Assembly: GCA_017406465.1 (NCBI GenBank)
Contig: JAFQYM010000030.1
Location: forward strand, 31,684 to 95,683
Source: Kiritimatiellia bacterium
GTDB taxonomy: Bacteria > Verrucomicrobiota > Kiritimatiellia > RFP12 > UBA1067
Length of the DNA: 64,000 nt
Reading direction: 5' to 3'
How positions within the stretch are numbered: the first letter of the stretch is position 1; each line of letters begins with the position of its first letter. This document shows, in pieces, positions 14,801 through 55,136 of this stretch. Made by a program: the position numbers and the translations under genes. Below the pieces are notes generated by a model. It did no database searches and had not been told where the DNA came from. It worked only from the letters and a program-made list of their open reading frames with translations.

Positions 14801-16467
14801 CGGGAGATGTTTTCGAGGCGACGCTGCCGATATACAGGAGAGATGGGAATAGCCGTGTAGAACATGTAGAACGTGTAGATGGGGTGATCGAGTATTCAAT
14901 CAGCGTAGGACGGAATGTCGTCGTTGCTGAGGGCAAGGTCATGCTTGAGAATGATGGCCACACAAACATCGTCGTGAGGTTGACTGCTCCGGAAGAGCCG
15001 GGGGAGATGGGCGTCGCATATTCCGTGAAGGGTTTGGGTGAGGCGCATCATGAGAGAATAATCCTGCCCGTTCGCCCTGCCGTCGCCTGGGTAGAGACTT
15101 CCGGCATAACGGCGAGCGAGAAATTGGCAGACACGGTCGGCAAGGTCGGGCGTCTCGAGAAGTTGTTTACGAAGGAATACGACACTCCGCTCGGTGGGTA
15201 CGAGGCGGCGCTACGCTGGCTCGCGGAATATCCGCATGGTTGCCTTGAGCAGACTTCCTCGCGCATGTTCCCGCTTATCGGCGCAGGAGGAATTCTTGCC
15301 TCAGTCTCGCCTGCGGGGCCTGATGTCGTATCTTCTGGCGTCAGGCGCGTCGAATCGATGGTGAGGTCTACCGACTTCGTGATGTGGCCAGACTGCAACT
15401 ATGCGCCATGGGACCCAGAAGTGTCGCTCTACGCCGCGCACTTCCTCGTCGAAGCGGAGAAGAACGGCTATGCGCTCAACCGCCTTGCGCGCGACCGCGT
15501 CTTCAGCTTCCTGAAGCGCTGGGCGATGTCGACGAACGACACTGTGTCGGCCTACGCCTGCCACACGCTCGCGCTCGCCGGCAAGCCGGAGAAGGACCGC
15601 ATGCTGCGGCTCTACGACGCGTCGACCAACCTGACGCTTCTTTCGCGCTCCCGCCTCGCACGCGCATTCGCCCTGACAGGCGACAGGCGCCGCGCCGAGA
15701 CGCTGCTTGCGGCAAATGTCGCGCCGTCGTCGGTGAAGGACGCTTCGTTCGCCGTCCTCGCGCTTCTCGATGTCGATCCTGACGATTCGCGCATACTTCC
15801 GCTCGTCTCCTATCTCGACAGGCAGCGCGACCGCGAGCGGTTTTCGTGGGGGACTACGGGCGACAACGCGCATGCGCTTCTTGCGATAGGCGCATACTAC
15901 CGCCATCATCCCGCGAAGACAGGCGAGAAGTTCGTCGTTTGGCACAAGCTCTCGCTACCCAAGCCAAGAGACGTAAGGGACGAGTCGCGCGGCATTTCCA
16001 TTGTGCGGCGCTACCTTACGCCCGAAGGCGGAGAGGCGGATCTCTCGAAACTTTCGCTCGGCGAGATGCTCATAGCCGAGCTTGCGATCAAGGTCGACGA
16101 CACGCGCGAGCTTTCCGATCTCGTTCTCGAAGACCTCCTCCCGGCTTGTTTTGAGCCAGTGCATGGTGGTCTCGTCCCGAAGCGAGCGAGTGCGGATCCA
16201 TCGGATCCGCGCGGAGCGAACGAAGGGGCGAGCGCCCATGCACTAGATCAGGGGAAATGGGTGATGAGGTCGGACGCTCGCGACGACAGGATGCTCGTCT
16301 TCTCGAAGAAATTCACGCTTGCTAAGGGCGAAGAGGCGACCTTCCGCTATCCGGTGCGCGTTGTCTCGGCTGGAGACTACATTCTCCCCGGCCCGAGCGT
16401 CGAGGCGATGTACCATCCAGACCTCCACGCTCGCCGCGCCCCCAGTCGCATTTCCGTCAGGCGGTAA
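11857..16467 (+). CDS. Bacterial alpha-2-macroglobulin family protein with thioester motif
   Basis: MG2-type WTDRGIYR, VEEFAPP, TTDKPFYRVGE, VDEGI; thioester YPHGCLEQTSS; C-terminal RDDR...YPVRVVSAGDYILPG..VEAMY. Confidence 0.9.
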   Translation: MKLKKLVVIGAFVALAVALCATASSLFWVCRKVRAFEAEHGGSVYANLSKAQMDEIIKAKIKEAATNAAPASASAVVQQSPEPAADKPKGPPPPPKPMVRFAAPGRYLPPGGARAIGVESVNVTNIHAEIRRVVPENVVQLLAREEREYSRYRWGGSADNEETEELSGEIEEHDFACVNRPNEKETVAVPVKMNDGGSANGIFLVAVRSADRPRADGWWVDEPKQNPNRYRLVCLSDLGLSVRLNGTESPGVWVTSLMKGTPLDGAKVTVYSKANIKVMEGETDENGWSRLVRVAKGEPFAVVATSADGADSTFLALRDSMEVDETYPDGCRPEYLADDGVEAFLWTDRGIYRHDEKIMVHALLRNGRRQAPSPMPVELRLVSPKGDIYFRLTMTTDAEGSLLCDTFTVPADQPSGAWKFQAKIPGKDGRILGTAGIKVEEFAPPQIRVKVEADASAHPSNFAFFVSAEHLFGGPAHALACEGAVVFEDYSFAPPQWKGWSFGNCDLGLKPNFRTLLKTSLDREGKCVMSAPLWADSGLPKAAVRATAQGTVFEDGGRPATARASAVLHYYPYYIGSTLESWMRLDNGLAPKIRFACVKPDGSRHGETRTLSATLERIDSVYSYRRQSNGWETWDCERIRKIVASSVKIVVPAGEDATFEIPAGTCGDYALTVTDSETGVSFAKTFYLSDWGDSAVRAPLSDPTAVTLTTDKPFYRVGETPRLMVRAPFAGYALVSVLRDKDAYTDIVALTNATSEIALRSVTLENAPNLDVYVSVVQSVEANAKHMAARAHGQATISVRPVEDEIAVKVEKCDVVVGSEKGSSATVTFEARGASAALVTIVDEGINILTDEQVPDPVAHFAAPRYASHPLYDIYHRMLPVLGEDLLRASGVKTGGGAGAEMLGRVSPVPTRRFKPLSRWSGRVKVGEDGKGVCEFPLGEFVGEIRATVVAWSASASGSDAIQAKVTPKIVMMPDAPRFVAPGDVFEATLPIYRRDGNSRVEHVERVDGVIEYSISVGRNVVVAEGKVMLENDGHTNIVVRLTAPEEPGEMGVAYSVKGLGEAHHERIILPVRPAVAWVETSGITASEKLADTVGKVGRLEKLFTKEYDTPLGGYEAALRWLAEYPHGCLEQTSSRMFPLIGAGGILASVSPAGPDVVSSGVRRVESMVRSTDFVMWPDCNYAPWDPEVSLYAAHFLVEAEKNGYALNRLARDRVFSFLKRWAMSTNDTVSAYACHTLALAGKPEKDRMLRLYDASTNLTLLSRSRLARAFALTGDRRRAETLLAANVAPSSVKDASFAVLALLDVDPDDSRILPLVSYLDRQRDRERFSWGTTGDNAHALLAIGAYYRHHPAKTGEKFVVWHKLSLPKPRDVRDESRGISIVRRYLTPEGGEADLSKLSLGEMLIAELAIKVDDTRELSDLVLEDLLPACFEPVHGGLVPKRASADPSDPRGANEGASAHALDQGKWVMRSDARDDRMLVFSKKFTLAKGEEATFRYPVRVVSAGDYILPGPSVEAMYHPDLHARRAPSRISVRR
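14855..14881 (+). repeat. In-frame 9-nt tandem repeat (VEHVERVD) inside the A2M gene
   Basis: gtgtagaac-atgtagaac-gtgtagatg. Confidence 0.7.
16176..16228 (+). repeat. REP-like palindromic element inside the A2M gene
   Basis: CCCGAAGCGAGCGAG, then hairpin GCGGATCC-atc-GGATCCGC (16192-16210), then GGAGCGAACGAAGGGG. Confidence 0.55.
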
Positions 16468-27866: not shown

Positions 27867-27996
27867 TCCCATTCATGCCGTCGTCCCATTGGCGTTAGCT
27901 TTAGGGGCTTGATGGCTTTGCTGTGGTGAACTGCTGTGGACCGACTCCGCGAAAGCCTTGTGTCAAGGTGAAAACGCGCGGAAACGGCGGTGGATA

Positions 27997-28005
27997 TGGT
28001 ATAAT
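27997..28005 (+). promoter_or_regulatory. Extended -10 for the GspG-GH2 fusion gene
   Basis: TGGTATAAT, then SD AGGAGG, then ATG 28031. Confidence 0.65.
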
Positions 28006-28030
28006 ACCTACATCACAAGGAGGAGATTGT

Positions 28031-30922
28031 ATGGTCGACTACAATGCGTTGAAGAAGAAGTTCCCGACGAAGGATCCCCAGAAGAAAAAGAAGGTCGCCG
28101 CCATCAAGGCGATAAAGCGCGAGTATGCCGCGAAGCGCGCGGCGCTCGGCGGCGGCGCGCCGACGATGAAGAAGGGCGTCGTCTTCTACGCCGTCGTCAT
28201 CCTCGGCCTCATGATCCTCGGCTCGCTCATCCTCTCCGTCACCGGGAAGGGCGGCCCCAAGGAGATATCGCGCGCGCAGATCCTCGTCAGGAAATCGGTC
28301 GATTCCGTCGCAGTGGCGCTCGGCCGCTACCGCTACCACGTCGGCAGCTATCCGTCGACGGAGGAGGGCCTTGAGGCGCTCGCGGCAATTACGCCGCGGA
28401 AGAAGGGCTGGAACGGCCCCTACGTCAACCATGTCGTGAAAGACCCGTGGGGGCACGACTACGTGTACGTCAACAACGGCGAGAACGAATATCCGACGCT
28501 CTACTCGAAGGGTCCCGACGGCAAGGCGGGAACGACTGACGACGTTCTTCCCGACCGCGCGCTCTACGACGCTCCTTTCAAGGACACTTCGTGGACGAAG
28601 GGCTGGATGCCGTACTACCTGCGCGGCTACGTTCTCGCTCCCGACAAGCGCACGAAAGGCGCCATCGAAGAGGAGGTCAAGGCCGTGCTCGCGGCAGAGC
28701 AGGGTCCGGCGGAAGGCGAGTTCGTGCTGCACGACGGCTGGGAGTTCTCGCGCGACCAGAAGACGTGGGCCGCCGTTCGCGTGCCGCACGACTGGGCGAT
28801 CGCGGGGCCGTTCGACGAGAAGCTCGACCACGGCACGGGGATGCTCCCCTGGCAGGGCGTCGGATACTACCGCCGCACGATAGAGCTCCCCGCGGACTCC
28901 GCAGGCAAGTTCGTCGCGCTCAGGTTCGGTGGCGTGATGGCGCGCCCGGAGGTGTTCCTGAACGGCGAGAAGGTGGGCAGCTGGGACTATGGCTACATGT
29001 CGTTCGAGGTCGACATCTCGGCAAAGATCAAGTTCGGCGAGAAGAACGAACTTCTCGTGAAGGTTGACACGACTAAGATGAGGAGCCGCTGGTACCCGGG
29101 CGCAGGCATCTACCGCGACGTCAAGCTCGTCGTCGAAGATGCAGAAGACCGCGCGATATGGGGGTCGGTCAAGATCACGACTCCCGAGATAACGCCCGAG
29201 CGCGCGAAAGTGCGCGTCGAATACCTTACGCCAGTGAGCGCGAGCCCGATTGTCAACGAGTTCGAGGTCGAGCGTCCCGTTCTCTGGGATGTCGCGAACC
29301 CGAAGCTCTACGAGACGACGATCTGCGGGAAGAAGTACAAATACGGCATCCGCACCGCCAAGTTCACCGCGAACGACGGCTTCATCCTGAACGGTCGGCG
29401 CGTGCAGCTCAAGGGCGTGAACCTCCATTCCGACCTCGGGCCGCTTGGCATGGCGTTCGACAAGGGCGCGATGCGTCGCCAGCTCGAGGTGATGAAGGAC
29501 ATGGGCGTGAACGCCCTCAGGACGTCGCACAATGCGCCTGCGGAGGAAGTTCTCGACCTCTGCGACGAGATGGGCATCCTCGTGTGGGACGAATGCTTCG
29601 ACAAGTGGGACGGGACTGCAGGCATCACTGAGGGCGACACGCTCGAGGAATATGTCTCGCGCAACCTAAAGCAGTTTGTGCGCCGCGACCGCAACCATCC
29701 ATGCGTCGTGTGCTGGTCGATCGGAAACGAGATCTCGCCGCGTCGCGAGGACTACCCGGCGGGAGTGTACGAGGAGCGCTGCAAGCTCTTCCGTGAAGTC
29801 GTCCTTTCCGAAGACACAACGCGTCCCGTCGGCATCGGCTGCTGCCACACGGAGTCTGCGGGCCGCGGCGATTACGCCGCGCTTGACCTGACCGGGTGGA
29901 ACTACAGCGAGCGCTACATGCCGATGAGGGAGAAGTTCCCGGATAAGCCGATCGTGTACTCCGAGTCGGCATCTGCGTTCTCGAGCTGGGGGTGCTTCCC
30001 TCCGACCCCGTCTGCGAACCCGACGAACTACGATTGGGAGACGGTAGTGGAGATCGACGCCTACGACCGCTGCGCGGCGAAATGGGCGGACATACCCGAC
30101 ATGGAGTTTGCGAGAATGGAACGCGACAAGTTTGTCGCCGGAGAGTTCGTTTGGACCGGCATTGACTACCTTGGCGAGCCTACTCCCGGCTACAAGCGCT
30201 GCCGCAGCTCGTTTTTCGGAATCTGCGACCTCTGCGCGATGCCGAAGGACCGCTACTGGCTCTACCGATCGTACTGGAACGATAGGAAGGACACGGTCCA
30301 TCTCCTGCCGCACTGGAACTGGGATGGTCGCGAAGGCGAGAAGGTCACTGTCGTGTGCTACACGAGCGGCGACGAGGCGGAGCTTTTCGTCAACGGTGAG
30401 AGTGCGGGCCGCAGGAAGAAGGTCAAGGATGCCGGTTCCATTGTCAAAAAGGGCGATCCGAACTACTACAAGGTGACGGAGCGCTATCGCCTCGTCTGGG
30501 AAGTTCCATACGAGCCGGGCGAAATCAAGGTCATAGCGTTTAGGAATGGACGCCCCATCGGCGAGGACTTCCGCAAGACGGCGTACAAGGCGGCGGCGGT
30601 GAAGCTTACGCCAGAGCAGACCGAGCTCGCGGACGGCGAGCTCGGCTTCGTGAAGGTCGAGCTCGAGGATGACGACGGGACGGTCCTGCCTCTCGCGAAG
30701 GACCGCGTGAACTTCAAACTTGAAGGACCCGGCGAGATCGTCGCCGTCGGCAACGGCTCGCACAACGGGCTTGATTCGTTCACGGACACCTCTTCGCATC
30801 CGCTCTACTACGGGCGAGCGCTCGTGATTGTTCGCAGGACCGGCGGCTCGGGTCTTCCGCTCAAGCTCACGGCGTCGGCTCCGTCGGTGAGATCTGCGGT
30901 CGTGACCTTCAGCCGCAAGTAG
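28031..30922 (+). CDS. Fusion: N-terminal TM + GspG-like pseudopilin domain + GH2 beta-galactosidase-type hydrolase
   Basis: ALGRYRYHVGSYPSTEEGLEAL...WNGPY...KDPWG.DY.Y...YSKGPDGKAGTTDD (T2SSG-like). Then VPHDW, FGGV, RWYPGAGIYR, RTSHN, WSIGNE, YSESAS, WTGIDYLGEP. One uninterrupted ORF. Confidence 0.88.
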   Translation: MVDYNALKKKFPTKDPQKKKKVAAIKAIKREYAAKRAALGGGAPTMKKGVVFYAVVILGLMILGSLILSVTGKGGPKEISRAQILVRKSVDSVAVALGRYRYHVGSYPSTEEGLEALAAITPRKKGWNGPYVNHVVKDPWGHDYVYVNNGENEYPTLYSKGPDGKAGTTDDVLPDRALYDAPFKDTSWTKGWMPYYLRGYVLAPDKRTKGAIEEEVKAVLAAEQGPAEGEFVLHDGWEFSRDQKTWAAVRVPHDWAIAGPFDEKLDHGTGMLPWQGVGYYRRTIELPADSAGKFVALRFGGVMARPEVFLNGEKVGSWDYGYMSFEVDISAKIKFGEKNELLVKVDTTKMRSRWYPGAGIYRDVKLVVEDAEDRAIWGSVKITTPEITPERAKVRVEYLTPVSASPIVNEFEVERPVLWDVANPKLYETTICGKKYKYGIRTAKFTANDGFILNGRRVQLKGVNLHSDLGPLGMAFDKGAMRRQLEVMKDMGVNALRTSHNAPAEEVLDLCDEMGILVWDECFDKWDGTAGITEGDTLEEYVSRNLKQFVRRDRNHPCVVCWSIGNEISPRREDYPAGVYEERCKLFREVVLSEDTTRPVGIGCCHTESAGRGDYAALDLTGWNYSERYMPMREKFPDKPIVYSESASAFSSWGCFPPTPSANPTNYDWETVVEIDAYDRCAAKWADIPDMEFARMERDKFVAGEFVWTGIDYLGEPTPGYKRCRSSFFGICDLCAMPKDRYWLYRSYWNDRKDTVHLLPHWNWDGREGEKVTVVCYTSGDEAELFVNGESAGRRKKVKDAGSIVKKGDPNYYKVTERYRLVWEVPYEPGEIKVIAFRNGRPIGEDFRKTAYKAAAVKLTPEQTELADGELGFVKVELEDDDGTVLPLAKDRVNFKLEGPGEIVAVGNGSHNGLDSFTDTSSHPLYYGRALVIVRRTGGSGLPLKLTASAPSVRSAVVTFSRK

Positions 30923-43094: not shown

Positions 43095-46000
43095 CTAAAG
43101 GTCTACAGGGAAAGCTTCGCATTCGGTGACGGAATTCTGTTCGTCCACCTTTATCCCAACAGAAAACATCCTATGCAAACCGTCAGATCCAACCTTTGGC
43201 GGAGCGAATGTCATTACCTGATATCCCTTGCCAGTCTTTACGAGTTGCGAAGTTCCGCTGACTTTCGTTGCGCCGTTGGCGAAGGAAACGACGCCATCTT
43301 TCTTAAAGGTCAGGACAAGACCGTCTTCCTGTTCCACTTTGAAATCCCTCTTGAATACCGGCATCGATGTCTTGGTATCCGCACGCTTCCAGAGATTCTG
43401 CCACGCAGACCACTCGTCGCACGACACTTCGCCTATCGCCGGAAGGTCGGTGTCGACAATGCTCGATGCGACCGTGATCACATTGGTTATCATGGCTTTG
43501 CCGTTTTTGCCGATGACGGTCGCGAGGAAAATGCCGTCCTCGGTGCTGTCATAGGAGCTCGCCGTGAGCGCCCATGTAAGGTTGTCGACAAGCATCTTGC
43601 CGCTTATCTTGCCTGCCGGCGACACCGTCAGCGCCTGGATGGCGCCGACTGCGTTGGCATCCGCGTCCCATGCCGTGCCGTAAAAGTTTCCAACCGCCCA
43701 TGCGGGAAGGGAATTGACTTGGAAGTCAAACGAGAATGTCTCTGATGACTTGCCTGCCGTCGTCACCGTGAATACTACCTTTGACGGCGTTACGGCGCCG
43801 GTCTTGGCATCGACCTTGGATGCCGTCGTCGGAACGCCCGTAACCGAATATTCCCCAGTCGTCTTGTTCTGGACGAGTTTTAGCCCGGCTGGAAGCCCCG
43901 CGACCTTCACCGTTGTCTTTGAAAGCCCGTCCGGCACAATCGGCCAGTCAAGGGCGACGCCGCAATAGCGGTTGACGGGCGCGTTTGCCGTGCCGCTCGC
44001 CGCGCCGTTCAGATTTGAGCTGTCCACTTCGAGGCCAATCGCGTCTTTGTCTTCCTGCGCAGTAACGAACTGTGCCGTGATGAATATGTCGTTCATGCCG
44101 TCCATTCTCAGCTTGATTGTCGCGGCGAAGGGATCCGGTATTTTGGCGTCTCCGCCGGTGATGACCCAGCGGCTGAAGACAAAGCCCTTGTCCGCCTTTG
44201 CCGTCAGCGAAACGTCCTTGCCTGCCGCGACCTGCCCGTACTTTGGGGTCATAGAAATCTTGCCTGTGGCGCCAGAGTCCTGCGTCAGCGATTCGATGGT
44301 GGCGACAATGCCGGGATCGCGGTAGACGTTGTCGCCGTAGTTCTCTCCATGGTGTGCGACGAGATTGACGTCCTTGAACACGGCAGGATATCCTTTTTTC
44401 GCGTCAGGGGGAATCGCAACTACTACGTGCAGTCCTGTTGGCTCTGCGAGCGCATTTGCCGAGAACGACGCTTTGCGCGACTTCGCGCCGTCGGGGATGT
44501 CGGCCGAACCTTTTACGGCGCCTTTCTCGTCAAGAGCAAAGGCAATCTCGCAGGAGGCATTGCCGTAGCCTGCGGAGAAGGAATAGGCGCCCGCGTATGT
44601 GGCGACAAGACCTGCGGCAAATGCATCGGATTTGTCCGACCAGATGATGCGGTAGAGCGTCGTGTCGTCGCTGCCGAACGAACCGGCGGCCGCGCCAGTT
44701 GCGGAGTCGACGGACAGGTATTCCGCCTTGAAGTCCGTGAGCGCCAGCGCCAGATCGCGAGTTATTTTGCCGGCGGTCGCCGACAGCCCGATCAGCAGGT
44801 TCGTTGTCCCCGTCGTTTCGCTTTCAATGGTGAAGGAATCGGCTTTGAACGTCCAGTTCGTGCCGTCCAGTGCGATTTTGCCCGATATCTTGCCTGCCGC
44901 CGTGATGCTCATCGTTGCCACGCCGCGCGAGGCGACGGATCCCTCGAAGTTTCCGACGGCCCATGAGGGAAGGGGGTCGACCGTTATCCTGACAACATAG
45001 GTCTTAGTCGACTTGCCTGCCGTCGTCACCGTGATCTTGACCTCCGACGGAGTGATGTGTCCCGTCTTTGCGTCGACCTTAGACGCAGCGGACGGAGCGC
45101 CGTAGATCGTATTTGCTGGGACAAGCACTTCCTTGGTCTTTGAATCGACAACGTCCTTTGCCGCAAACTTGAGCCCCGAGGGAAGCCCCGCCACTTTCAC
45201 CGTTGTCGCCGAGAGCGCCGTCGCGGCGACTGGCCACTGGAGCGAGATGCCGCACATTACATTTGTCAAGAGCGTGTCGGAGGGGTTTTCGAAGGAATGG
45301 CCGTCCATTTCAAGCGCAATCGCCTTTGCGTCATCGGCGAGCGTCGCAAAACGCGCTTCGAGCGCCAGGTCTTCTGCCGGCATCTCGAGTGAAAGCGCCG
45401 CATTTCGGGATTCATCCACCAGTTCCCCGTCCAGATAATAGCCGCAGAACGCGAAACCGGCGTTAGCCGTTGCCTTCAGCGCGACTTTCTTGCCGTATGG
45501 ATAGGAACCGGCGCCCGTGACCTTGCCCATTTGCGGAGCAGAAGCTCCGTCGCAGTCGACGACGTCGGCTGACAATTTCGGGAACAGCACGTTGAATCCG
45601 GCGGTAACGACCTTCTTTTTGCCGTCCTTTCTCGCGGTGAATGTTACGGTCGTGCGCCCCTCTTTCGCGGCAATGCCGCTCAGTCGCCTATTTGGGGCGT
45701 CGTATGCAATTCCCTGCGGCAACCCCGAAACGGTCAACGTCCAGCCATTCTCCGCGACGGTCGCAATAATGTCCGACAGGTCGGGCGCGAGCCCCGCCCA
45801 GAGTGTGTAGGGGCTGCCGAGTCCGAATCCAATAAAGGCATCGCGTTCAAACGTGGCTTCTGATATGATTGAGCAGTTAAGATCCTCCTTGAAGGCACGG
45901 GCCTTCACCGTTACGCTCGAAGAGATCTCGAACGGTCCGCAATACTCTTCGCTTTCTTCCGTCGGATCCGTTCCGTCCGTCGTATACTTTATGACGGCAC

Positions 46001-47696
46001 CGTCCGTGGCGCACGAAATCGTCACAAGTGTGTTTGGATAGAAGATTCCCCCGTTGGGCGAAATCATCGGCGGCGCGGCAGACTTGACGTTTATGACCAT
46101 GTCGCATCCCCAGGAGTTTCCACAGGCCACGCTTTTCCCCGCGTCATTGATCCAGCACATGCCAACGTCAAGAGTCACACTCGAGCTAGCGCTCCTTGTT
46201 GTCGTTGCCTTGGCCGACACACTGTAACCAGTCGCTTTCACGGTGTACGACTTGTCCGCGTCGACTACAAACGCATATATTCCCGATTCGCTTGTCGCCG
46301 TGCTGGCGATCGGCTCGTCGGAATCGGCAGAGAAGATCGCGACATCCACGTTGGGAAGGGGAGTGCCCTCTTCATCGGTAACGCGCCCGGACACTATTTC
46401 CCCGTTTGTCTCGGGGAATATATTGTATATGACCGATTCCACCATCGTAGACTCGTATTGGCCGTCGGCCGTCGTGATGTACGGCAAGGCATACCATACG
46501 TTGTCTTCACCTGACCACCCGAGGTTGACATGCGTATAGAGGGTCCCGTCTGAATAGCCGTAGCCGTCGGCGAAGGCGATGTGCCCGACAAATCCAAGGA
46601 TCACTGGCAGTCCTGCGTCAAGATTCGAGCAGACGATGCGATTGCGGAAACTCTCGTCCTTTAGATCCTTCTCGCATGCGCATACTATGGCGTTTTTGTA
46701 TCCAAAGTCTTCTATCAGCACCGATGCCGAGCCTGCTCCGCCTGAAGAACTGGCCTCCTCGTCCCACCACATCCTCATTGCGACACCGCAGTCGTATGTC
46801 AGTTTCCCGATGGCGGCCAGCTGGGTCTCGGTCGCCCCTCCTGCGTACCAAGGCACATATTCGTATGCCTCGGGAATAAGTGGCATGCTGTCATAGTCGT
46901 ATTCTCCGCCAAACATCGTCATGAACGCGTTTTTAGTCCGAACCTTGCAGCCCTTGGTCTTTGCCTTGACGGACTTTGGGTACTCGTGATAACGCATGAT
47001 TTGCGCAAGAGTCGTCGCAACGCATCCGCACGGATAGTTGCTTGGGGTGTAGTAGTTGTAGCAATTGGTGCCCATGTTGATGTATATGGAGTTGTTCTCT
47101 TGCCCCCACATTGACTTTACAAACGGCTCGACACGGACGTCGGAAACAGATTCGGCCGGGTCGGTGGCCGATTTCAGCATGTTCCTTGATCCCTTGGCCG
47201 AAGATGACGTTCTTGCGCCTTCCGAAAGGAGCCGATCCCACTGCCTTTGGGTGGCCGTGCGCTGCTGTTCCTCGGCCGTCGAAGTCAGGAGCCGGACCTT
47301 GCGAGCGGGAGTCGCGGGTTCGTTTGCGCGGGTGCGCATTGCGATATCGGCCTTGAGGATGTCCAAGAGCGGGCTGTTGCAGTCGCCCTTGCGCAGATTG
47401 CCTGTCGGCGAGAATGCAATGACCGGCTGGACAAGATCGTCTGCGCCCATGACGACGAAACCGCCGCCGTCAAGCGAGACGACGTGCATTTTCGCGTTGT
47501 CCGCCTCTAAGGTCTCGCCGTCCGCGGCGGATCTGCCGCGGAGACCATCCATGGAGTAGCCGAGGTTTATCCACGCCTGCGCTGCCGTCTTCGCGGACTC
47601 AAGCGAGACTTCTGCGGCATTTGAGATGGCCGGCGGGAAAAACAGTGCTGCGACTGCAATGGCCGAGGATGTCCAAGAAATGGATATCTTCTTCAT
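43095..47696 (-). CDS. Large secreted C10 (streptopain-like) peptidase with Spi/I69 prodomain, CHB_HEX_C-like, putative Ig and B-repeat domains
   Basis: GGFVVMGADD..QPVIAFS (I69-like), PCGCVATTLAQIMRY, GHIAFADGY, HVNLGWSG, YTTDGTDPT, repeated SGLP.G, G.VTGAGSY.YGKKV.LKATANAGF.F. Confidence 0.85.
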   Translation of the reverse strand: MKKISISWTSSAIAVAALFFPPAISNAAEVSLESAKTAAQAWINLGYSMDGLRGRSAADGETLEADNAKMHVVSLDGGGFVVMGADDLVQPVIAFSPTGNLRKGDCNSPLLDILKADIAMRTRANEPATPARKVRLLTSTAEEQQRTATQRQWDRLLSEGARTSSSAKGSRNMLKSATDPAESVSDVRVEPFVKSMWGQENNSIYINMGTNCYNYYTPSNYPCGCVATTLAQIMRYHEYPKSVKAKTKGCKVRTKNAFMTMFGGEYDYDSMPLIPEAYEYVPWYAGGATETQLAAIGKLTYDCGVAMRMWWDEEASSSGGAGSASVLIEDFGYKNAIVCACEKDLKDESFRNRIVCSNLDAGLPVILGFVGHIAFADGYGYSDGTLYTHVNLGWSGEDNVWYALPYITTADGQYESTMVESVIYNIFPETNGEIVSGRVTDEEGTPLPNVDVAIFSADSDEPIASTATSESGIYAFVVDADKSYTVKATGYSVSAKATTTRSASSSVTLDVGMCWINDAGKSVACGNSWGCDMVINVKSAAPPMISPNGGIFYPNTLVTISCATDGAVIKYTTDGTDPTEESEEYCGPFEISSSVTVKARAFKEDLNCSIISEATFERDAFIGFGLGSPYTLWAGLAPDLSDIIATVAENGWTLTVSGLPQGIAYDAPNRRLSGIAAKEGRTTVTFTARKDGKKKVVTAGFNVLFPKLSADVVDCDGASAPQMGKVTGAGSYPYGKKVALKATANAGFAFCGYYLDGELVDESRNAALSLEMPAEDLALEARFATLADDAKAIALEMDGHSFENPSDTLLTNVMCGISLQWPVAATALSATTVKVAGLPSGLKFAAKDVVDSKTKEVLVPANTIYGAPSAASKVDAKTGHITPSEVKITVTTAGKSTKTYVVRITVDPLPSWAVGNFEGSVASRGVATMSITAAGKISGKIALDGTNWTFKADSFTIESETTGTTNLLIGLSATAGKITRDLALALTDFKAEYLSVDSATGAAAGSFGSDDTTLYRIIWSDKSDAFAAGLVATYAGAYSFSAGYGNASCEIAFALDEKGAVKGSADIPDGAKSRKASFSANALAEPTGLHVVVAIPPDAKKGYPAVFKDVNLVAHHGENYGDNVYRDPGIVATIESLTQDSGATGKISMTPKYGQVAAGKDVSLTAKADKGFVFSRWVITGGDAKIPDPFAATIKLRMDGMNDIFITAQFVTAQEDKDAIGLEVDSSNLNGAASGTANAPVNRYCGVALDWPIVPDGLSKTTVKVAGLPAGLKLVQNKTTGEYSVTGVPTTASKVDAKTGAVTPSKVVFTVTTAGKSSETFSFDFQVNSLPAWAVGNFYGTAWDADANAVGAIQALTVSPAGKISGKMLVDNLTWALTASSYDSTEDGIFLATVIGKNGKAMITNVITVASSIVDTDLPAIGEVSCDEWSAWQNLWKRADTKTSMPVFKRDFKVEQEDGLVLTFKKDGVVSFANGATKVSGTSQLVKTGKGYQVMTFAPPKVGSDGLHRMFSVGIKVDEQNSVTECEAFPVDL

Positions 47697-48099: not shown

Positions 48100-48186
48100 T
48101 TGCTTATTAGCAGACCCAATAAAATCAAGGGTTTTGCGCGTTTTTGCGGGGTAATTTTACCCACGAAATTTTTTTTGTATACCCCC

Positions 48187-48216
48187 TTGCGCACAGCACA
48201 CAAGATATGCTATAAT
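48187..48216 (+). promoter_or_regulatory. Sigma70 promoter of the surface-protein operon
   Basis: TTGCGC, 18-nt spacer, TATAAT preceded by TGC. Confidence 0.7.
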
Positions 48217-48222
48217 GTCCGC

Positions 48223-48441
48223 GTTCTCGAACAACAAGGAGGATTCGGACGATGTGTCCGGGCCTTGGTTAACAGACCGGGGCACAACGAAAGTTGACTC
48301 TGAAGTTGCGAGAGGACAACAAGTTAACCACCTGAAGTGGACTTGAGTGAAGGCGGTCGGGTGATCGCAAGAGCTCTGGAAAGCGGAAGGTACCGGAGAA
48401 GGGTCCAACAAGCCCGACTCCAAAAAAAGGAAAAAAACAAA
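48223..48441 (+). ncRNA. Structured ~220-nt 5' leader (candidate cis-regulatory RNA)
   Basis: Hairpins with GNRA loops (CAAC-GAAA-GTTG, C-GAGA-G, TC-GCAA-GA, CT-GGAA-AG); long-range GTCGGG/CCCGAC; three CAACAAG motifs. Confidence 0.5.
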
Positions 48442-49203
48442 ATGAAGAAGCTCATGATTGCTTGCGCTGTTGCGGCTACGACCGTCGGCGCTTTCGCGGG
48501 TGGCTGCGGTGACGACGATCCCGTCGTTGTTCAGGATCCTGTCAACCAGGTCTATCGTCTCTCCTTCACGGGCAAGACGACTGACGGCGTTCCGGGCAAG
48601 GATATTGTCACGCCCGTCTTCTGCGGCGATGACGACGTTCAGGACGGCTGCGTTGTTCGCGTCCCGGCGAACCTCAAGATCGAGGGCTGGGTTGTTCTCT
48701 GCGACATCACCTGCGGCACGATCCTCGACGTGTTCAACGCTCCGAAGAGCCAGGCCTACTGGACCACGAAGCCCTACAAGGCTGACATTCCGGATGGCGC
48801 TGCTACGTTCGATCTCATCAACGTGATCGGCAAGAAGGGCAAGGATGCTGAGGCTGCTGGTAAGTTCACTGGTACCGTTACGTACGCTGCGGACTATACG
48901 TGGTCGCTTGGCGACGGCCTTGTTTTCGCGGGCCTTGGAAAGACCGCGGTCAAGAACGGCAGCTGGGCGTACTTCCCGTCCTTCTCGGGCAACTTCGCTG
49001 GCTCGCCTGTCGCGTCCTGGTACATCAAGGGCAACGTCTGCGAGCAGACGCATGTCTGGGAGCCCTGCACGATGGCCGTCAACTGCGACGAGACCCCGAA
49101 CACGGTTGCGTTCGGCAAGTGGGCGATGAAGTATGATGCCGCGGCCACGAAGAAGGTTGCGACGACGAATCCTAGCAAGCCGTCTTACGCGACGATCCAC
49201 TAA
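48442..49203 (+). CDS. Secreted Cys-rich hypothetical protein, probably highly expressed
   Basis: Signal peptide MKKLMIACAVAATTVGAFA; 8 Cys in the mature part; many GCT/GTT/GGT codons, unlike neighbours; SD AAGGA. Confidence 0.85.
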   Translation: MKKLMIACAVAATTVGAFAGGCGDDDPVVVQDPVNQVYRLSFTGKTTDGVPGKDIVTPVFCGDDDVQDGCVVRVPANLKIEGWVVLCDITCGTILDVFNAPKSQAYWTTKPYKADIPDGAATFDLINVIGKKGKDAEAAGKFTGTVTYAADYTWSLGDGLVFAGLGKTAVKNGSWAYFPSFSGNFAGSPVASWYIKGNVCEQTHVWEPCTMAVNCDETPNTVAFGKWAMKYDAAATKKVATTNPSKPSYATIH

Positions 49204-49228
49204 GGTTCGAAAGCAGTAGAAATGCTGC

Positions 49229-49275
49229 GACAACAGCAGGGGGTATCTCAAGACGCCTCCTGCTGTTGTCCTCTT
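49229..49275 (+). terminator. Long hairpin, terminator or processing/stabilising stem
   Basis: GACAACAGCAGG...CCTGCTGTTGTC (12-bp perfect outer stem) followed by ctctt. Confidence 0.6.
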
Positions 49276-49291
49276 AAAGGGTTATAAGTTG

Positions 49292-50440
49292 ATGAAATTT
49301 AGCGTGAGGGTTTGTTTCTCGTCTATTTTGTTCGCGGCGTTGCTTGTTGGCTGCGGACGGAATGAGCATTCAAGGGCACCTGGCGAGTATGTTGGCGGCG
49401 TCCCTCTTCTTATGGATGAGTTGTCGAATGGCGATGTGGTTTTCATCGTAAATGGCGAGAAGTACACCAAGCGCGATTTTCGGACGGCTGTTTCGCTGGC
49501 GGACAAGATGCGTCGGATGTGTGCGGGCGATCCTTTGACGGGCCCGAACAAGCCGGCTCAGGAGTATTCAAGATGGGCGCGGCCCCGCACGCTGAGCGAT
49601 GCCTTTCGCCGGGTGCTGATGCGCCAGTATACGAAGAAGAATGGCATCACGCCGACGCAGGAAGAGATCGACGAGTCCGCGATGCGCGTTCTCATGAATC
49701 TCAAGCGTGGGAAGTCGACGCTCGATGCTGTCGAGAAGGAGTTTGGCAAGGCGGACGGGAAGCTTTTCCGCCAGTATGTTCTTGATGACGCGACCGAGCA
49801 GGCGGCGCGGCGGTTTGTGGACGACAAGGGAACTTTGAACATCACGGACGACGACGTGATCAACATTTCAAACAGGATTGCCAGGTTTCAGGCCCGCGCG
49901 GCGGCGTCGAACGCGGTCGAGAAGGCGATTCTCGAGAAGGCAATCGCCGAAATCGCTGCGGGCAAGGATTTCGCGGAGGTCGCGAAGGCGTATTCGCGAG
50001 ATCCGGAGCAGGGTGCGCTGTGGGAGACGAGCTACCTCGACGAGATGGAGTCGAGCCCTGCGTTGATGAAGTGGGCTTCGAGCGCCAAGGCCGGCGATGT
50101 CTCGGGCATTCTCGAGCTTGATGATGGTTGGGCGATCGTAAAAGTCGTTTCGAGGCGCGACGAGGACATTCCGCCCGGAGTCATTAAGATACCACGGGAA
50201 ATATGGGAACTTGTGCGCGTCTCGAGAAACCTTTTCGAGTCTCCGCCCGACATGGATCGCGAGGAAATCGTCGCGAAGCTTCGTGAGTTCAGGAATAAGG
50301 ACCTCCAGAAGAAGATCGGCGACCTGATCATGAAGGAGGCCGTCATCGAATGGCCGAACGGCACGAACCTCTTTGTAAAGGCGGCGGCTCCGGCGGTCAA
50401 GAAGGATCCGCCGGAGGCGAAGTCCGCGGAGGACAAGTGA
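49292..50440 (+). CDS. PrsA/SurA-like parvulin PPIase lipoprotein
   Basis: Lipobox LLVGC; SurA-N-like helical region; rotamase-like GKDFAEVAKAYSRD...GDVSGILELDDGWAIVKV. Confidence 0.75.
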   Translation: MKFSVRVCFSSILFAALLVGCGRNEHSRAPGEYVGGVPLLMDELSNGDVVFIVNGEKYTKRDFRTAVSLADKMRRMCAGDPLTGPNKPAQEYSRWARPRTLSDAFRRVLMRQYTKKNGITPTQEEIDESAMRVLMNLKRGKSTLDAVEKEFGKADGKLFRQYVLDDATEQAARRFVDDKGTLNITDDDVINISNRIARFQARAAASNAVEKAILEKAIAEIAAGKDFAEVAKAYSRDPEQGALWETSYLDEMESSPALMKWASSAKAGDVSGILELDDGWAIVKVVSRRDEDIPPGVIKIPREIWELVRVSRNLFESPPDMDREEIVAKLREFRNKDLQKKIGDLIMKEAVIEWPNGTNLFVKAAAPAVKKDPPEAKSAEDK

Positions 50441-50483
50441 CTTTCAAGAAACGGAACACATGCAGAGAAGGAAGGAGAACAAC

Positions 50484-53400
50484 ATGAAAATCAAGGGACA
50501 ACTTGTACTATCCGCCCTCGCCGCAGCCGCGACGTTGCTGGCGGTCGCCGATTCGCGAGTCGAGTCGTCGTCCGACGCGCAGCTTTTCGAATTCTTCACG
50601 GCCGACCGCGCGCCAGTCGGTTCGGAAATCCAATTGGGCGTCTGGAACTCCGACATCGACGCCTGCATCGAACTTGCCAAGGAGACGGGCATCCCGATGA
50701 TCGGCGTCTGGAGCCGCGAGGGTTGCGCGCACTGCAAGATCCTCGAGCACGCGATCATGTCCGACGTGTTCCGCGAGTGGATTAAGAAGAGCGGGCTCAT
50801 CCTCGGCTTTTCGACCTCTCTCGACTCGGCGACCTTGAGCGGAGCGGATCAGGCGACGCGCGCCAAGCACTATCCGGGCGTCGTCTTCGACGAGGGCGGC
50901 GGACGTCAGCAGGCGGCGAATCCTGCGTCTGGCACGCCGACGGGCTATACGGGCGACGGACGCTACTGGAAGTGGTGCAAGGGGCCGGAAAACCTCTCGA
51001 ACTACCCGGAAGTCCGCTTCTTCTGGTACGAGGACGGAAAGAAGAAAGTCGACTTCGCCGTTCTCGGCGACAAGGTCGACGGCCAGCAGGGAATCTACAT
51101 GGGTTCGTACGACAAGGCCGGCCAGAACTGCATCAACTACATCACGAACAAGACGGGTTTCAAGCCCTATCTCGATAATCCGAAGTCGCTGTCGTCCTAT
51201 ATGGGCGGCACGTTTGAGGACGGCTACACGGACGGCAACCGCCTCGAGGCAGAAGAGGGCACTGGCGAGATTTCGTTCGACATGGTGCGCGGCGAAGCCG
51301 CCGCGGCCGTCGCGACGAACAACACCGTGAAGGTAGTCGGTCCCGACAAGCAGGTTGCCGAGACGGTCGTCGTCGAGTGGGAGGAGGGCGAGGACCAGAA
51401 GACCGTGACGGTCGACATGTCGAAGGTGAATTTCTCGAAGAACGGCGACAAGGCGCTTCTCATCGCTGTCGACGCCGATGGCAACGAGCAGGCGACGAAC
51501 ACCGTCACCTACGTTACGGGTTCTGGCGAGAGTTCGGGCAATCCGCTTTGGATTGGCGAGCGCAAGGCGACAACGGCGGATGGCGACATCCCTGTTCTCC
51601 AGTTCGGCGAATGGACGATGGACCTCGACGTCGCGAAGGCCAAGGTTGCGGACGCCGACGGCGACGCCTTTACGCTCGTCTCCGTCCAGGGTGCGCTCTG
51701 GTGCCCGGACTGCGCCAACACCGAGCGCAACTTCACGGACGTGGAGGATGGATCCGGAAATAATAGGTTCGCCGCCTGGGCGGCTGCAAATCAGGTTGCG
51801 CTTGTCGCAATCGACGTGCCCTCGTTCGCCACGAACAACATCGACAACATCTCGCGTCCGACGCTTCTTTCGCGCAAGGCGATTTCCACGACGCTGGCGC
51901 GCGCGAGGGAGTATCCGGCGTCTGGCGCAGAAGCCTCGCTTACGAACGCGATGGTTCGGAGCGGACTTGGGTATCTCACGCGCAAAGGCGTTTCGGATGA
52001 AGTTGCGGCGGACTATCTTGAACGCAATCGGCAGCTCGTAACGACTGACTTCTCCGAGGGTGGTTTTCATAGTGTGGCGGACAGTTCGCCGTTCCGCACC
52101 GGCGTTCCGATCTTCGTGGTCCTCGACAAGGAAGGAATCGTCAAGGCGCGCCTGACGCGCTTCGCGAGCGTGAGCCCGATGTCCGACCTTGACTGGGACA
52201 GCGCCATCAAGCGCTTCGACGAGCTGCTGGCGATTGCGCGGGACGGCAGCGCGCATGCCGACGGCGGCGTTCTCGAGAACGACTTCCCGTCGGCTGACCT
52301 CGAGGGCTTCACGGCGAACGGTGGAAGGGTTTCCGGGGAGATTTCGCACTGCGACTTCAGGGATGTCTACAAGCTGCAGAACTTCGGCGGCAACGCCGTG
52401 CTGCAGGTCGACGCCGTGGGCGAGTCCGACGCGGAGGTCTCGCTGGCCTTCGTGACGCTCGATGCCGCGGGCAGGAAGACGACGGTCACGAACGCGGTCG
52501 GCCGGCTCTCGGACGGCGTTTCGCTGCGGAACATGTTCGCGAGCGCGGGCGAGTATTACGTCGAGATCTCTGGCGCGAGCTACGATGCAGCGGACTTTGC
52601 CGTTGCGAATCCGACCGCTCTCGCCTTCCATACCTACACTCTCTCCGGTGCGGTCGTCCTCGTTCCTGGCGAGGTGCGCTCCACGGCGTCCGCTCCCGAA
52701 GGGCAGACGACCGTCACGATGGAGCTCGTAGAGGGGACACGCTACCGCATCGAGGGACTTGCGGACGATCCTGGAGACTCGCTCGAGAAGTCCGGCGAAG
52801 ACTTCTATGTCGCGAAGACCACTGGCAGCGCCCAGCTTTCCGTCGCGACGGCGGGCGGCGAGGTCGTGTACCAGATTTGGAATCCTGGCTCCGTCGGCTT
52901 TGTTGCGGCCGCCAAGAAGGTGAAGGAGAGCGTCGGCGACGTCGAGGTGGCGATTGCGCGCACGGAGGGGACGTCCGGCGCCGTGACGGTGAAGGTCGCG
53001 CTTGATGAGGACGCGACGACGCTGTACGACAGCGATGGGAAGGCGCGCTTTGCGTTCGCGGAGACCGAGATCACATGGGCGGAGGGCGCGAACTTCACGA
53101 CGAACTTGACGATTTCCGTTTACGACGACACCCGGTTCGACGGAAACGGCGACGTGGCGCTCAAGCTCGCGCTCGTCGCGGACGAGAACGGCGACACGAC
53201 GCTCGGGCTGACGAACTACGTGCTGACGGTGACGGAGGACGACAAGCAGTCCGCCGGCAAGGCCGCGTTCACGGGGGCCGAACCGTTCTTCTCGAAGAAG
53301 GCCACGGTGTACGCCCGCGAGAGCGAGGGCGCGACGGTTTACGCCGAGCGCATCGAGGCCTCCGACGGCTTCGTGACGGTGAAGGTGAACGCGACGAACG

Positions 53401-55136
53401 GCGCGAAGACCGAGATTGGCGGCGTCGAGACGAACGTTGTCGTCTGGGCGAACCACAAGTCCGAGTTCCAGGCGGTCAAGGTGACGGGAATCGCCGCCGG
53501 AAAGTCCGCGAAGCTGACGCTCGTCAACCCGACCGACGGGCTCAAAGTCCTCTCGGCCTCCAACGCGGTGACGGTCGTCGCGGTGGCGGACGATGCGCCG
53601 GCGTTTGACAGCCTCGAGGAGGGTGCGACGCTCTATCGCTATGCAGAATTCGCCGCCTCCTATCCCGTCGTTGGCGCGGCCGAGGGTGCGAAGCTGACGT
53701 TCACGAAGCTCTCGGGGACGCTTCCCGCGGGGCTTAAGGTTGCTGCGGACGGCCAGGCGATGTCCGTTTCGGGCATCCCGTCGGCGAAGCCGGGAACCTA
53801 TGTGGCGGTCTACCAGGTTTCCCAGAAGGTCGGCACGAAGACCACGCCCGGTCTCACGATCGAGCTTGAGTACGAGATTGTCGACCCGACGGACGCATCT
53901 GCGGGCGGGACGGCCTACAACGAGGCGGTTGCGTCCGTGAACTCGCGTACGATCAAGGACATCGCCATGATTGCGCTAAACAAGGACATCGACGCGGCGG
54001 ACACGAACCGCCTGGCCGGACTCCTCCAGGTGACGATTCCGAAGACCGGCAAGCTCAGCGCGAAGCTGGCCTGTTCGGACGGGACTGTCGCCTTCTCTGC
54101 GAAGGGCTGGAGCGAATTCAACGAAGTCTCCCGCTCGCTCGTCGCCGACCTGACGTCGAACAAGGCCGGCTACTCCATGACGCTCGTCGCGGAGAATGAC
54201 GGCCCCGTCACCGTCTCCGTGACGACTCCCACGGGCGTCCAGCTATCCGGCATCACGAAGGGGAAAGTCTGGAGCAAGACGAATCCTGCGAGCGACTGGA
54301 TGGGCTACTACACAATCCAGCTAATCAACAATTCCGTGTCCGAAAGCTCCGAAGGTGTCGCGCCGCGCGGTAACGGCTACCTGACGCTCAAGATGAACAC
54401 GGCCGCGGCGGTGAATTCCGGTAAGGTGACGTGGGCGGGAATGCTTCCGAACGGCACGGCCGTTTCCGGTTCCGTCGTCCTCAACGCGGACGACGAGTGC
54501 GGGGCGCAGGTCTTCGTCTACAAGCGCTCCTCCACGGACGAGATTTCGAGCATCCTCGAGATCCCCGACTGCGAGTCGGTTGCGGGCGATCTCGACACGG
54601 GTGCCTTCTGGAAGCATACCGAGAAGTCCTTTGCGTACGAGGTCGGCTTCAACGCTTACGGTGCGCTGTACGTCGCGACGACCAACCTTGCCGAGGCCTG
54701 CGAAATCGGGTACGAGACGACGACGCCGACGCTGTACTTCGACATCGAAGGGCTCTGCGGCGCGCTTGCCGGCGGGACGCCGTCCGCGGTCGACGGCGTG
54801 AAGGTTTCCGTCGGCGAGAAGACTGTCACGGTTGAGAAGGGCAACGCGGCGGGCGCGACAATCTCGCTCAACCGCTCGACGGGCGTCGCGACTGGGTCGT
54901 TCAAGATTCCGTATACGGACGCTAAGGGTGCGGCGAAGACGATGACGGCGAACTTCAAGGGCGTCGTGGTGATCGGATGGGGTCCGGGCTGCGGCTGCGG
55001 CGACGATGATCCTAGCAGACCTGTGGCGCTTCCGTTCGTGAATGGTGCATTCTTCGTCTCCGACAAGGTTGGCGTGGCCGGCGGCACCAAGACGGCGACG
55101 GTCAAGCGCGGCGGAGCCATCTTCATTGACAAGTAA
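50484..55136 (+). CDS. Giant secreted protein: two thioredoxin-like CxxC domains, Calx-beta, putative Ig, conserved C-terminal module
   Basis: SD AAGGAG before ATG 50484; signal peptide; WSREGCAHC and ALWCPDC; Calx-beta-like VGF......V.E.....V.I.R..G..G.V.V; SGTLPAGL. Confidence 0.8.
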   Translation: MKIKGQLVLSALAAAATLLAVADSRVESSSDAQLFEFFTADRAPVGSEIQLGVWNSDIDACIELAKETGIPMIGVWSREGCAHCKILEHAIMSDVFREWIKKSGLILGFSTSLDSATLSGADQATRAKHYPGVVFDEGGGRQQAANPASGTPTGYTGDGRYWKWCKGPENLSNYPEVRFFWYEDGKKKVDFAVLGDKVDGQQGIYMGSYDKAGQNCINYITNKTGFKPYLDNPKSLSSYMGGTFEDGYTDGNRLEAEEGTGEISFDMVRGEAAAAVATNNTVKVVGPDKQVAETVVVEWEEGEDQKTVTVDMSKVNFSKNGDKALLIAVDADGNEQATNTVTYVTGSGESSGNPLWIGERKATTADGDIPVLQFGEWTMDLDVAKAKVADADGDAFTLVSVQGALWCPDCANTERNFTDVEDGSGNNRFAAWAAANQVALVAIDVPSFATNNIDNISRPTLLSRKAISTTLARAREYPASGAEASLTNAMVRSGLGYLTRKGVSDEVAADYLERNRQLVTTDFSEGGFHSVADSSPFRTGVPIFVVLDKEGIVKARLTRFASVSPMSDLDWDSAIKRFDELLAIARDGSAHADGGVLENDFPSADLEGFTANGGRVSGEISHCDFRDVYKLQNFGGNAVLQVDAVGESDAEVSLAFVTLDAAGRKTTVTNAVGRLSDGVSLRNMFASAGEYYVEISGASYDAADFAVANPTALAFHTYTLSGAVVLVPGEVRSTASAPEGQTTVTMELVEGTRYRIEGLADDPGDSLEKSGEDFYVAKTTGSAQLSVATAGGEVVYQIWNPGSVGFVAAAKKVKESVGDVEVAIARTEGTSGAVTVKVALDEDATTLYDSDGKARFAFAETEITWAEGANFTTNLTISVYDDTRFDGNGDVALKLALVADENGDTTLGLTNYVLTVTEDDKQSAGKAAFTGAEPFFSKKATVYARESEGATVYAERIEASDGFVTVKVNATNGAKTEIGGVETNVVVWANHKSEFQAVKVTGIAAGKSAKLTLVNPTDGLKVLSASNAVTVVAVADDAPAFDSLEEGATLYRYAEFAASYPVVGAAEGAKLTFTKLSGTLPAGLKVAADGQAMSVSGIPSAKPGTYVAVYQVSQKVGTKTTPGLTIELEYEIVDPTDASAGGTAYNEAVASVNSRTIKDIAMIALNKDIDAADTNRLAGLLQVTIPKTGKLSAKLACSDGTVAFSAKGWSEFNEVSRSLVADLTSNKAGYSMTLVAENDGPVTVSVTTPTGVQLSGITKGKVWSKTNPASDWMGYYTIQLINNSVSESSEGVAPRGNGYLTLKMNTAAAVNSGKVTWAGMLPNGTAVSGSVVLNADDECGAQVFVYKRSSTDEISSILEIPDCESVAGDLDTGAFWKHTEKSFAYEVGFNAYGALYVATTNLAEACEIGYETTTPTLYFDIEGLCGALAGGTPSAVDGVKVSVGEKTVTVEKGNAAGATISLNRSTGVATGSFKIPYTDAKGAAKTMTANFKGVVVIGWGPGCGCGDDDPSRPVALPFVNGAFFVSDKVGVAGGTKTATVKRGGAIFIDK

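Follow-up and report, generated by a model that had tools for sequence, protein, structure and literature searches.

A giant protein with two predicted thioredoxin-fold domains and a conserved cysteine-rich operon partner in gut and rumen Kiritimatiellia

Introduction

Chlamydial DsbH is a reducing, periplasmic thioredoxin-like oxidoreductase of the Planctomycetes-Verrucomicrobia-Chlamydiae (PVC) lineage, from bacteria whose Cys-rich envelope is cross-linked by disulfides (PMC5193440, PMC4217174). The dedicated actinobacterial oxidoreductase MdbA is required to assemble Cys-containing surface fibres, the pilins (PMC5478893), and HBP35 of P. gingivalis (PMC2907840) and Etrx1/2 of S. pneumoniae (PMC3914529) carry CxxC thioredoxin-fold domains with demonstrated thioredoxin activity at the cell surface of these host-associated bacteria. 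Here we analyze a gene at positions 50484 to 55136 (+) of a 64,000-nucleotide stretch of DNA (hereafter the window) from a Kiritimatiellia bacterium (GenBank assembly GCA_017406465.1, contig JAFQYM010000030.1, positions 31,684 to 95,683 of the forward strand), which encodes a giant protein with two CxxC-bearing, thioredoxin-like domains. We favor, at roughly even chances, the reading that this gene encodes a Sec-exported thiol-disulfide oxidoreductase resembling protein disulfide isomerase (PDI), built into a giant envelope protein and serving the products of its own operon.

None of PDI, DsbH, DsbA, MdbA, HBP35 or Etrx has twin thioredoxin domains on a giant beta stalk, and we regard the protein as a design not described before, most likely a disulfide-exchange enzyme of the cell envelope. 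To our knowledge, the common assumption is that strict anaerobes lacking DsbA/DsbB rely little on extracytoplasmic disulfides. In the present case, strong selection maintains two catalytic-type thioredoxin domains on a giant protein with an export signal throughout a family of abundant gut and rumen bacteria. If active, this protein would be a bacterial PDI analogue with a defined client, and would hint at disulfide-cross-linked protein envelopes in the PVC group beyond the Chlamydiae and Planctomycetes. The analysis also offers a first clue to the function of an unnamed protein family that no cultured representative carries; no source names any member, and we found no literature on thioredoxin-domain giants of the Kiritimatiellia.

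Results and Discussion

The open frame extends from 50460 to 55136 (+) and spans 1,558 residues when counted from an in-frame upstream ATG at 50460. Residues are numbered here from that ATG (protein P0001); the likely real protein, 1,550 residues from the ATG at 50484, has each number reduced by 8. A Shine-Dalgarno site, GGAAGGAGA, lies 7 nt 5' of the ATG at 50484 and homologs begin at the equivalent Met (consensus MK...), and therefore 50484, the start adopted by the first-pass annotation of this DNA, is likely correct. A Sec-type signal peptide, MKIKGQLVLSALAAAATLLAVA (50484 to 50549, +), was read from the sequence by eye, and Sec export of the protein is predicted. The signal peptide is followed in order by thioredoxin domain 1, a Calx-beta-like sandwich, a linker with the sequence NPLWIGER, thioredoxin domain 2, a beta stalk and a C-terminal module. 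On the opposite strand, an open frame of 982 residues (50508 to 53456, −) overlaps the gene; such antisense frames are a pitfall in this genome of 61% G+C.

Domain 1 comprises residues ~58 to 240 (50631 to 51179, +). Its CxxC motif, C89-A-H-C92 (50724 to 50735, +), ends the first of two motif strings that the first-pass annotation had quoted and that the DNA does encode, GVWNSDIDACIELAKETGIPMIGVWSREGCAHC at 50637 to 50735 and GEWTMDLDVAKAKV...ALWCPDC at 51606 to 51713. The proline at the cis-Pro position, Pro183 (51006 to 51008, +), lies in the loop NYPEVRFFWYEDG, and a variable, disordered insert of ~30 residues (138 to 167) stands between the motif and this proline. Domain 2 comprises residues ~381 to 600 (51600 to 52259, +), with the motif W-C415-P-D-C418 (51702 to 51713, +) and the invariant cis-Pro-position proline Pro550 (52107 to 52109, +) in the loop RTGVPIFVVLDKEG. 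In domain 2 the insert is longer (~95 residues, 453 to 549) and conserved; it is placed between beta3 and the cis-Pro loop and contains an invariant SGLGYLTRKG. Between the two domains lies the Calx-beta-like sandwich (residues 262 to 352; 51243 to 51515, +), which is recognized by conservation, by AlphaFold2 (AF2) strands at model positions 230 to 319 and by Foldseek matches to the NCX/CALX calcium-binding domain CBD1 (~5e-4), and which is followed by the near-invariant NPLWIGER.

Both CxxC regions are, on the combined evidence of sequence profiles and a predicted model, genuine thioredoxin-fold domains. In an alignment of 121 homologs of ~1,500 residues, with identities as low as ~37%, the C89/C92 pair is retained in 99% and the C415/C418 pair in 100%, and the prolines P183 and P550 are present in 99% and 100%; both CxxC motifs are retained in genomic relatives at 23-30% identity, and CxxC is present in every thioredoxin-like domain detected among 129 diverse cluster representatives. 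Such invariance is typical of active oxidoreductases, and inactive thioredoxin-like domains usually lose the CxxC pattern; thioredoxin folds are also often reused for binding, for example in the b domains of PDI. Identity to the window residue is 56-68% in the three sub-regions of domain 2, the most conserved part of the protein; the stalk has 40-54% and domain 1 has 9-34%.

When the domains of relatives were scanned singly (E<=0.1), Pfam Thioredoxin_7 (PF13899; gathering cut-off 27 bits) matched domain 1 in 48 of 57 (best 1e-9) and domain 2 in 49 of 60 (best 2e-9), the latter set also containing 17 matches to Thioredoxin_2 and 11 to TXD17-like. Many homologs carry precomputed PF13899/PF13098 matches, and the domain profiles recover proteins of the same genome that independently exceed the Thioredoxin_7 cut-off. 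An hhalign comparison shows homology between domains 1 and 2, with the CxxC motifs aligned (95%, E=2.6e-8). Searches of solved structures with the full-length protein (phmmer against the PDB) gave no match, and these structures were reached by family profiles only. The domain 2 profile matches 2ju5 ("thioredoxin disulfide isomerase", 9.8e-8) and 3fk8 (1.3e-5), with Pro550 aligned to the GIPAVVVV loop of 3fk8; the domain 1 profile matches S. aureus DsbA (1.4e-5), DsbC (8.8e-4) and AGR3 (2.8e-3). For both domains, the Pfam tallies and the PDB profile matches consist of thioredoxin-family oxidoreductases only.

The AF2 model of residues 33 to 640 (608 residues) has a mean predicted local distance difference test score (pLDDT) of 87.6, with 84-95 in the domain 1 core and 93-98 in domain 2. 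The order of elements assigned by DSSP in this model is b1-a1-b2-[CxxC]a2-b3-a3-[Pro]b4-b5-a4 in both domains. C89 and C415 are each modeled one residue ahead of a helix (90-99 and 416-426) and after a strand (80-85 and 404-410), and P183 and P550 directly precede strands 184-191 and 551-555 (b4). The suggestion made from the DNA alone that both regions are thioredoxin-like is thus borne out by conservation, Pfam matches in relatives, PDB profiles and model topology, and the absence of a thioredoxin fold, which had been named as grounds for abandoning it, is not what the model displays.

The best solved-structure match of domain 2, 2ju5, is chlamydial DsbH, which is a single domain of ~150 residues and, unlike the giant, has no insert, stalk or second thioredoxin domain. 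Similarly, the best solved matches of domain 1 are S. aureus DsbA and a DsbC, and the domain 2 insert occupies the same topological position as the helical insert of DsbA; DsbA and MdbA are small, periplasmic or membrane-anchored single-domain enzymes, unlike the giant. HBP35 and Etrx1/2 have single thioredoxin domains in proteins of 20-40 kDa and unrelated operon contexts. HBP35 has a C-terminal sorting domain, whereas the giant has neither a type IX secretion system (T9SS) C-terminal domain nor a lipobox.

In overall plan the giant resembles PDI and the ERp proteins, where a single exported polypeptide likewise contains two homologous catalytic thioredoxin domains and a non-catalytic domain between them. 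As with PDI, a prolyl isomerase accompanies it to form a folding module. The CxHC motif of domain 1 and its cis-Pro loop, Y-P-x-[VI]-[RK]-F-F, presumably correspond to those of PDI a-domains. The a-b-b'-a' arrangement of PDI was not recovered, as the spacer in the giant is a Calx-beta-like sandwich and not a thioredoxin-like b/b' pair. In addition, the giant differs from PDI in the WCPDC motif and 95-residue insert of domain 2 and in its ~900-residue beta stalk; it is bacterial, comes from an anaerobe and has no evident Ero1-like oxidant, and no direct sequence relationship to PDI is detectable beyond the thioredoxin superfamily.

Across representatives the domain 1 motif is mostly CxHC (CGHC 18, CSHC 10, CPHC 8, CGYC 8, and others), and the domain 2 motif is CPDC in 99 of ~134 copies. 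The residue before the cis-Pro position is Tyr in domain 1 and Val in domain 2. We take CxHC with a Tyr before the cis-Pro to be PDI/DsbA-like, and WCPDC to be the motif of TRP14/TXNDC17, each as a lead on redox character only.

An exhaustive HMMER search of 1.84 billion proteins (E<=1e-30, clustered at 50% identity) delimits a family of 316 cluster representatives, nearly all of 1,000-2,800 residues with the domain at about residues 300-560. Among 129 representatives the architecture is T1-T2 in 118, T1-T2-T2 in 4, T1-T2-T1-T2 in 1 and T2 only in 6 (T1 and T2 being domains 1 and 2). The members P0220 to P0224, with 1,650-2,060 residues, have three or four thioredoxin domains (T1-T2-T2 or T1-T2-T1-T2) and keep CxxC in each. 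No standalone domain 2 was found, only 4 fragments on short contigs. Almost all genomic matches are metagenome-assembled genomes (MAGs) of gut or rumen Kiritimatiellia from sheep, goat, yak, cattle and human. When 301 genomes (149 genera) were sampled across the phylum, the domain 2 type was present in 9 genomes and 6 genera, all in one family save one genome from a sister family.

Two paralogs deviate in domain 1 or domain 2. In the same genome as the giant, a protein of 2,235 residues has a BspA-type leucine-rich repeat (LRR) head in place of domain 1 and keeps WCPDC and the insert. It is composed of seven LRR_5 repeats, Flg_new, He_PIG, the WCPDC cassette and part of the C-terminal module, stopping before the region of the CGC loop described below. 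This paralog (locus L074) is present identically on two short contigs (C29:531-7235 and C49:368-7072), either as a true duplicate or through assembly redundancy. The second paralog, L032 (8895-9515), is a further copy in the MAG that holds the related locus L019. Its domain 2 motif is WDANC, so that the nucleophilic Cys is gone, while the second Cys, GEWTMD, SGLGYLSRKG and the V-P loop remain; only one such case was seen. The neighborhood of L032 also differs, having neither of the two genes that precede the giant, the Cys-rich gene and the peptidyl-prolyl isomerase (PPIase) gene.

The remainder of the giant consists largely of beta structure. The stalk (residues 641 to 1150; 52380 to 53909, +) has an AF2 model with pLDDT 91.8 and strands throughout, and Foldseek matches it to CALX CBD12 at 1.3e-11 as well as to cadherin- and titin-like strings. 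Pfam Calx-beta (PF03160) falls on residues 809 to 907 (52884 to 53180) with E=4e-4 and 20.8 bits, below its cut-off, and the family profile reaches the NCX1 CBD at 7e-7. The Calx-beta/Ig-like stalk that the first-pass annotation had reported is thus confirmed at the level of profiles and predicted structure. The term adhesin-like used in the same annotation is a label, and adhesion finds no support in these results.

The C-terminal beta module (~410 residues; 53892 to 55136, +) is common to the giant, the downstream protein P0002 and the LRR paralog. A hidden Markov model (HMM) of the module recovers from the same genome P0002 (1.6e-23), the paralog on C29/C49 (6e-50) and, weakly, a He_PIG protein (1.4e-5), and finds no such module in the nearby C10 peptidase at E<=1e-3. 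No T9SS/Por sorting family of Pfam matches P0001 (E<=1), and the module is lineage-specific. In its last domain, a low-confidence loop (model 864-886; block pLDDT 56) holds C1511-G-C1513 (within GPGCGCGDDDP; 54990 to 54998, +), the only cysteines conserved family-wide outside the two CxxC pairs. Within the closer family their conservation is 100% and 98%, and a CxC is found within the last 120 residues in 52 of 93 diverse representatives.

The giant is the third gene of an operon in which a Cys-rich protein and a PPIase lipoprotein precede it and P0002 follows. The first gene (48442 to 49203, +) translates to an exported protein of 253 residues, with a signal peptide ending in ...GAFA followed by GGCGDDDP. 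No Pfam domain matched it, and all 79 homologs are unnamed or annotated as 'hypothetical'. It is single-copy in its own genome, and all of 40 sequences retain five of its cysteines (C22, C61, C87, C91 and C200). The second gene (49289 to 50440, +) encodes a PpiC/SurA-type PPIase with a lipoprotein-type signal (LLVGC), identified by Pfam (Rotamase 3.8e-11, SurA_N_3 3e-5). The ATG of P0002 lies 17 nt past the stop of the giant; P0002 (55154 to 59260, +) is itself a giant of 1,368 residues with PPC-like and Calx-beta domains and the same C-terminal module.

This arrangement is conserved. The upstream sequence is long enough in 46 related loci, of which 26 have the Cys-rich gene at about -2 kb and 29 have the PPIase immediately upstream, at about -1.2 kb; P0002 lies at +4.6 kb downstream in ~35 related loci. 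Of the 301 sampled genomes, 9 encode the giant, and 8 of these also encode the Cys-rich protein; among the 292 that lack the giant, only 4 do (Fisher p=3e-12). Where the two co-occur, the Cys-rich gene is always on the contig of the giant, a few kb distant. The Cys-rich neighbor mentioned in the first-pass annotation is therefore a genuine and conserved operon partner, and the 253-residue protein is a candidate substrate or partner of the giant.

The peptide CGDDDP is common to the mature N-terminus of the small protein (AFAGG-CGDDDP, 48442 to 48530) and the loop of the giant (GPGCG-CGDDDP, 54984 to 55010), and a second CGDDD occupies residues 61-65 of the small protein. This likeness may be due to chance, to a shared recognition or cross-link site, or to a Ca-binding motif. 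Homology of the small protein to the C-terminal module of the giants was rejected (hhalign probability 5%). An open frame of 364 residues on the minus strand (48157 to 49251), considered as a neighbor gene, was likewise rejected as an antisense shadow of the Cys-rich gene; its tblastn matches in relatives mirror the conserved sense gene.

Redox-pathway genes were inventoried in the same genome and in relatives, with control genomes responding as expected. DsbD_TM is found in 25 of 26 relatives, and DsbB and, above cut-off, VKOR are each found in 0 of 26. The DsbD of the same genome is fused to a Thioredoxin_7 domain, and a TlpA-like redoxin gene follows it. The visible envelope redox pathway is reducing only. 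The DsbD/CcdA-type transporter of the DsbC/DsbG/DsbD reductive pathway is thus present, with electron transfer to the giant being predicted, whereas the DsbB or VKOR that reoxidizes members of the DsbA family was not found. With DsbD present and neither DsbB nor VKOR, an isomerase or reductase is therefore expected rather than a DsbA-style oxidase. A DsbB-like match in the same genome was rejected, as it is sub-threshold, stop-interrupted and absent in relatives.

In the PDI-like reading that we favor, a ~900-residue all-beta stalk carries the two homologous thioredoxin domains N-terminally, with the ~95-residue insert of domain 2 as the likely surface for a substrate or partner. Together with the PrsA/SurA-like PPIase, the giant would fold, shuffle or open disulfides in the products of the operon, and its chief client would be the exported 253-residue protein, in which five cysteines are invariant. 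The CxxC pairs would be expected in the reduced state, acting in isomerization or reduction and not as a DsbA-type primary oxidase. A periplasmic location is as possible as surface exposure. The paralog L032, which has lost the domain 2 nucleophile and also lacks the Cys-rich and PPIase neighbors, speaks for this reading.

Several observations weigh against it. Both domains of the giant itself fall short of the 27-bit Thioredoxin_7 cut-off: domain 1 scores 21.3 bits (14.8 when scanned alone) and domain 2 scores 16.1. A Foldseek search with the complete N-terminal model (608 residues) matched only beta-sandwich structures, through the intervening sandwich, and because of this the fold claim rests on topology and sequence profiles. 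One genome has the giant with no detectable small protein and four genomes show the reverse, and in distant clades (CSRC/CPYC types) there are no recognizable Cys-rich or PPIase neighbors. The cysteines of the small protein may bind metal instead of forming disulfides, and no oxidant for disulfide making was identified in what is a strict anaerobe.

A broader extension, which we regard as rather doubtful, is that these Kiritimatiellia build an envelope layer or fibre from an abundant five-Cys subunit, and that a giant protein assembled with it bears a dedicated, self-contained relay that would make, shuffle or open the disulfide cross-links of this subunit, from CxHC to WCPDC to the CGC loop, the last resembling the N-terminal CGDDDP of the subunit. 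This would amount to a redox-controlled envelope like the chlamydial outer membrane complex, in free-living strict anaerobes without DsbA/DsbB. The small Cys-rich protein has no Pfam match, and no homology to OmcA/OmcB was found.

Alternatively, the giant may be a surface reductase acting on external disulfides, such as those of host mucins, dietary or microbial proteins or cystine, for nutrient access or mixed-disulfide adhesion. The signal peptide and the long Ig/Calx-beta stalk are compatible with such a role, as are the BspA-type LRR head of the paralog, a Thioredoxin_7 domain fused to a GH97-containing frame in the same genome, the secreted C10 cysteine peptidase adjoining the operon and the precedent of HBP35, a surface thioredoxin-domain protein of P. 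gingivalis (PMC2907840). However, the family is equally frequent in rumen and hindgut MAGs, and the genes to which it is tightly and conservedly linked encode a foldase and an endogenous Cys-rich protein. The mucin disulfides proposed in the first-pass annotation are without support as a target. Moreover, the C10 peptidase is found in few loci only, the giant may equally well be periplasmic, and an enzyme at the surface would have no evident electron source. We therefore consider an external substrate unlikely.

An envelope antioxidant or repair relay, passing electrons from a DsbD-like protein to peroxiredoxin- or methionine sulfoxide reductase (Msr)-type enzymes or to damaged envelope proteins, is a quite improbable explanation. 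It can be likened to the pneumococcal Etrx1/2-CcdA-MsrAB2 or TlpA-type systems, in which surface thioredoxin-fold lipoproteins have this role (PMC3914529), and it would make use of the DsbD with its Thioredoxin_7 domain and adjacent redoxin, DsbD being found across the relatives. However, genes for Msr, peroxiredoxin or cytochrome maturation are absent from the conserved operon, it is the Cys-rich protein with which the giant co-occurs, and the giant stalk and shared C-terminal module would be left unexplained. That the thioredoxin-like domains are non-catalytic, their CxxC pairs being structural disulfides or metal or haem ligands in a structural or adhesive fibre, draws on the hemin binding of HBP35 (PMC2907840) and on the paralog without the first Cys, which keeps the other domain 2 motifs and suggests a binding role of the insert surface, but is very improbable given the invariance, over more than 300 clusters, of both CxxC pairs, of the Trp/Gly context ahead of them and of the Pro at the cis-Pro position.

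The genome encodes further, unusual Thioredoxin_7 fusions. Among them, the frame with Thioredoxin_7 (residues 358-449) and a complete GH97 is locus L079 (contig C57:6727-11670, −; 1,648 residues) and also has endonuclease/exonuclease/phosphatase and BSP peptidase domains. In the window, the divergent gene adjoining the operon (43095 to 47696, −) encodes the secreted C10 (streptopain-like) cysteine peptidase, a protein of 1,533 residues with a Spi inhibitor propeptide and CarboxypepD_reg, CHB_HEX_C and InlB B-repeat domains. A frame of 999 residues (27923 to 30922, +) has a type II secretion pseudopilin G domain (123-206) before a full GH2 glycosidase; either the enzyme has a pseudopilin-type N-terminus or the start of the frame may be mis-set. 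Further upstream, a bacterial alpha-2-macroglobulin of 1,536 residues (11857 to 16467, +) has the MG2-MG10 and bait-region domains.

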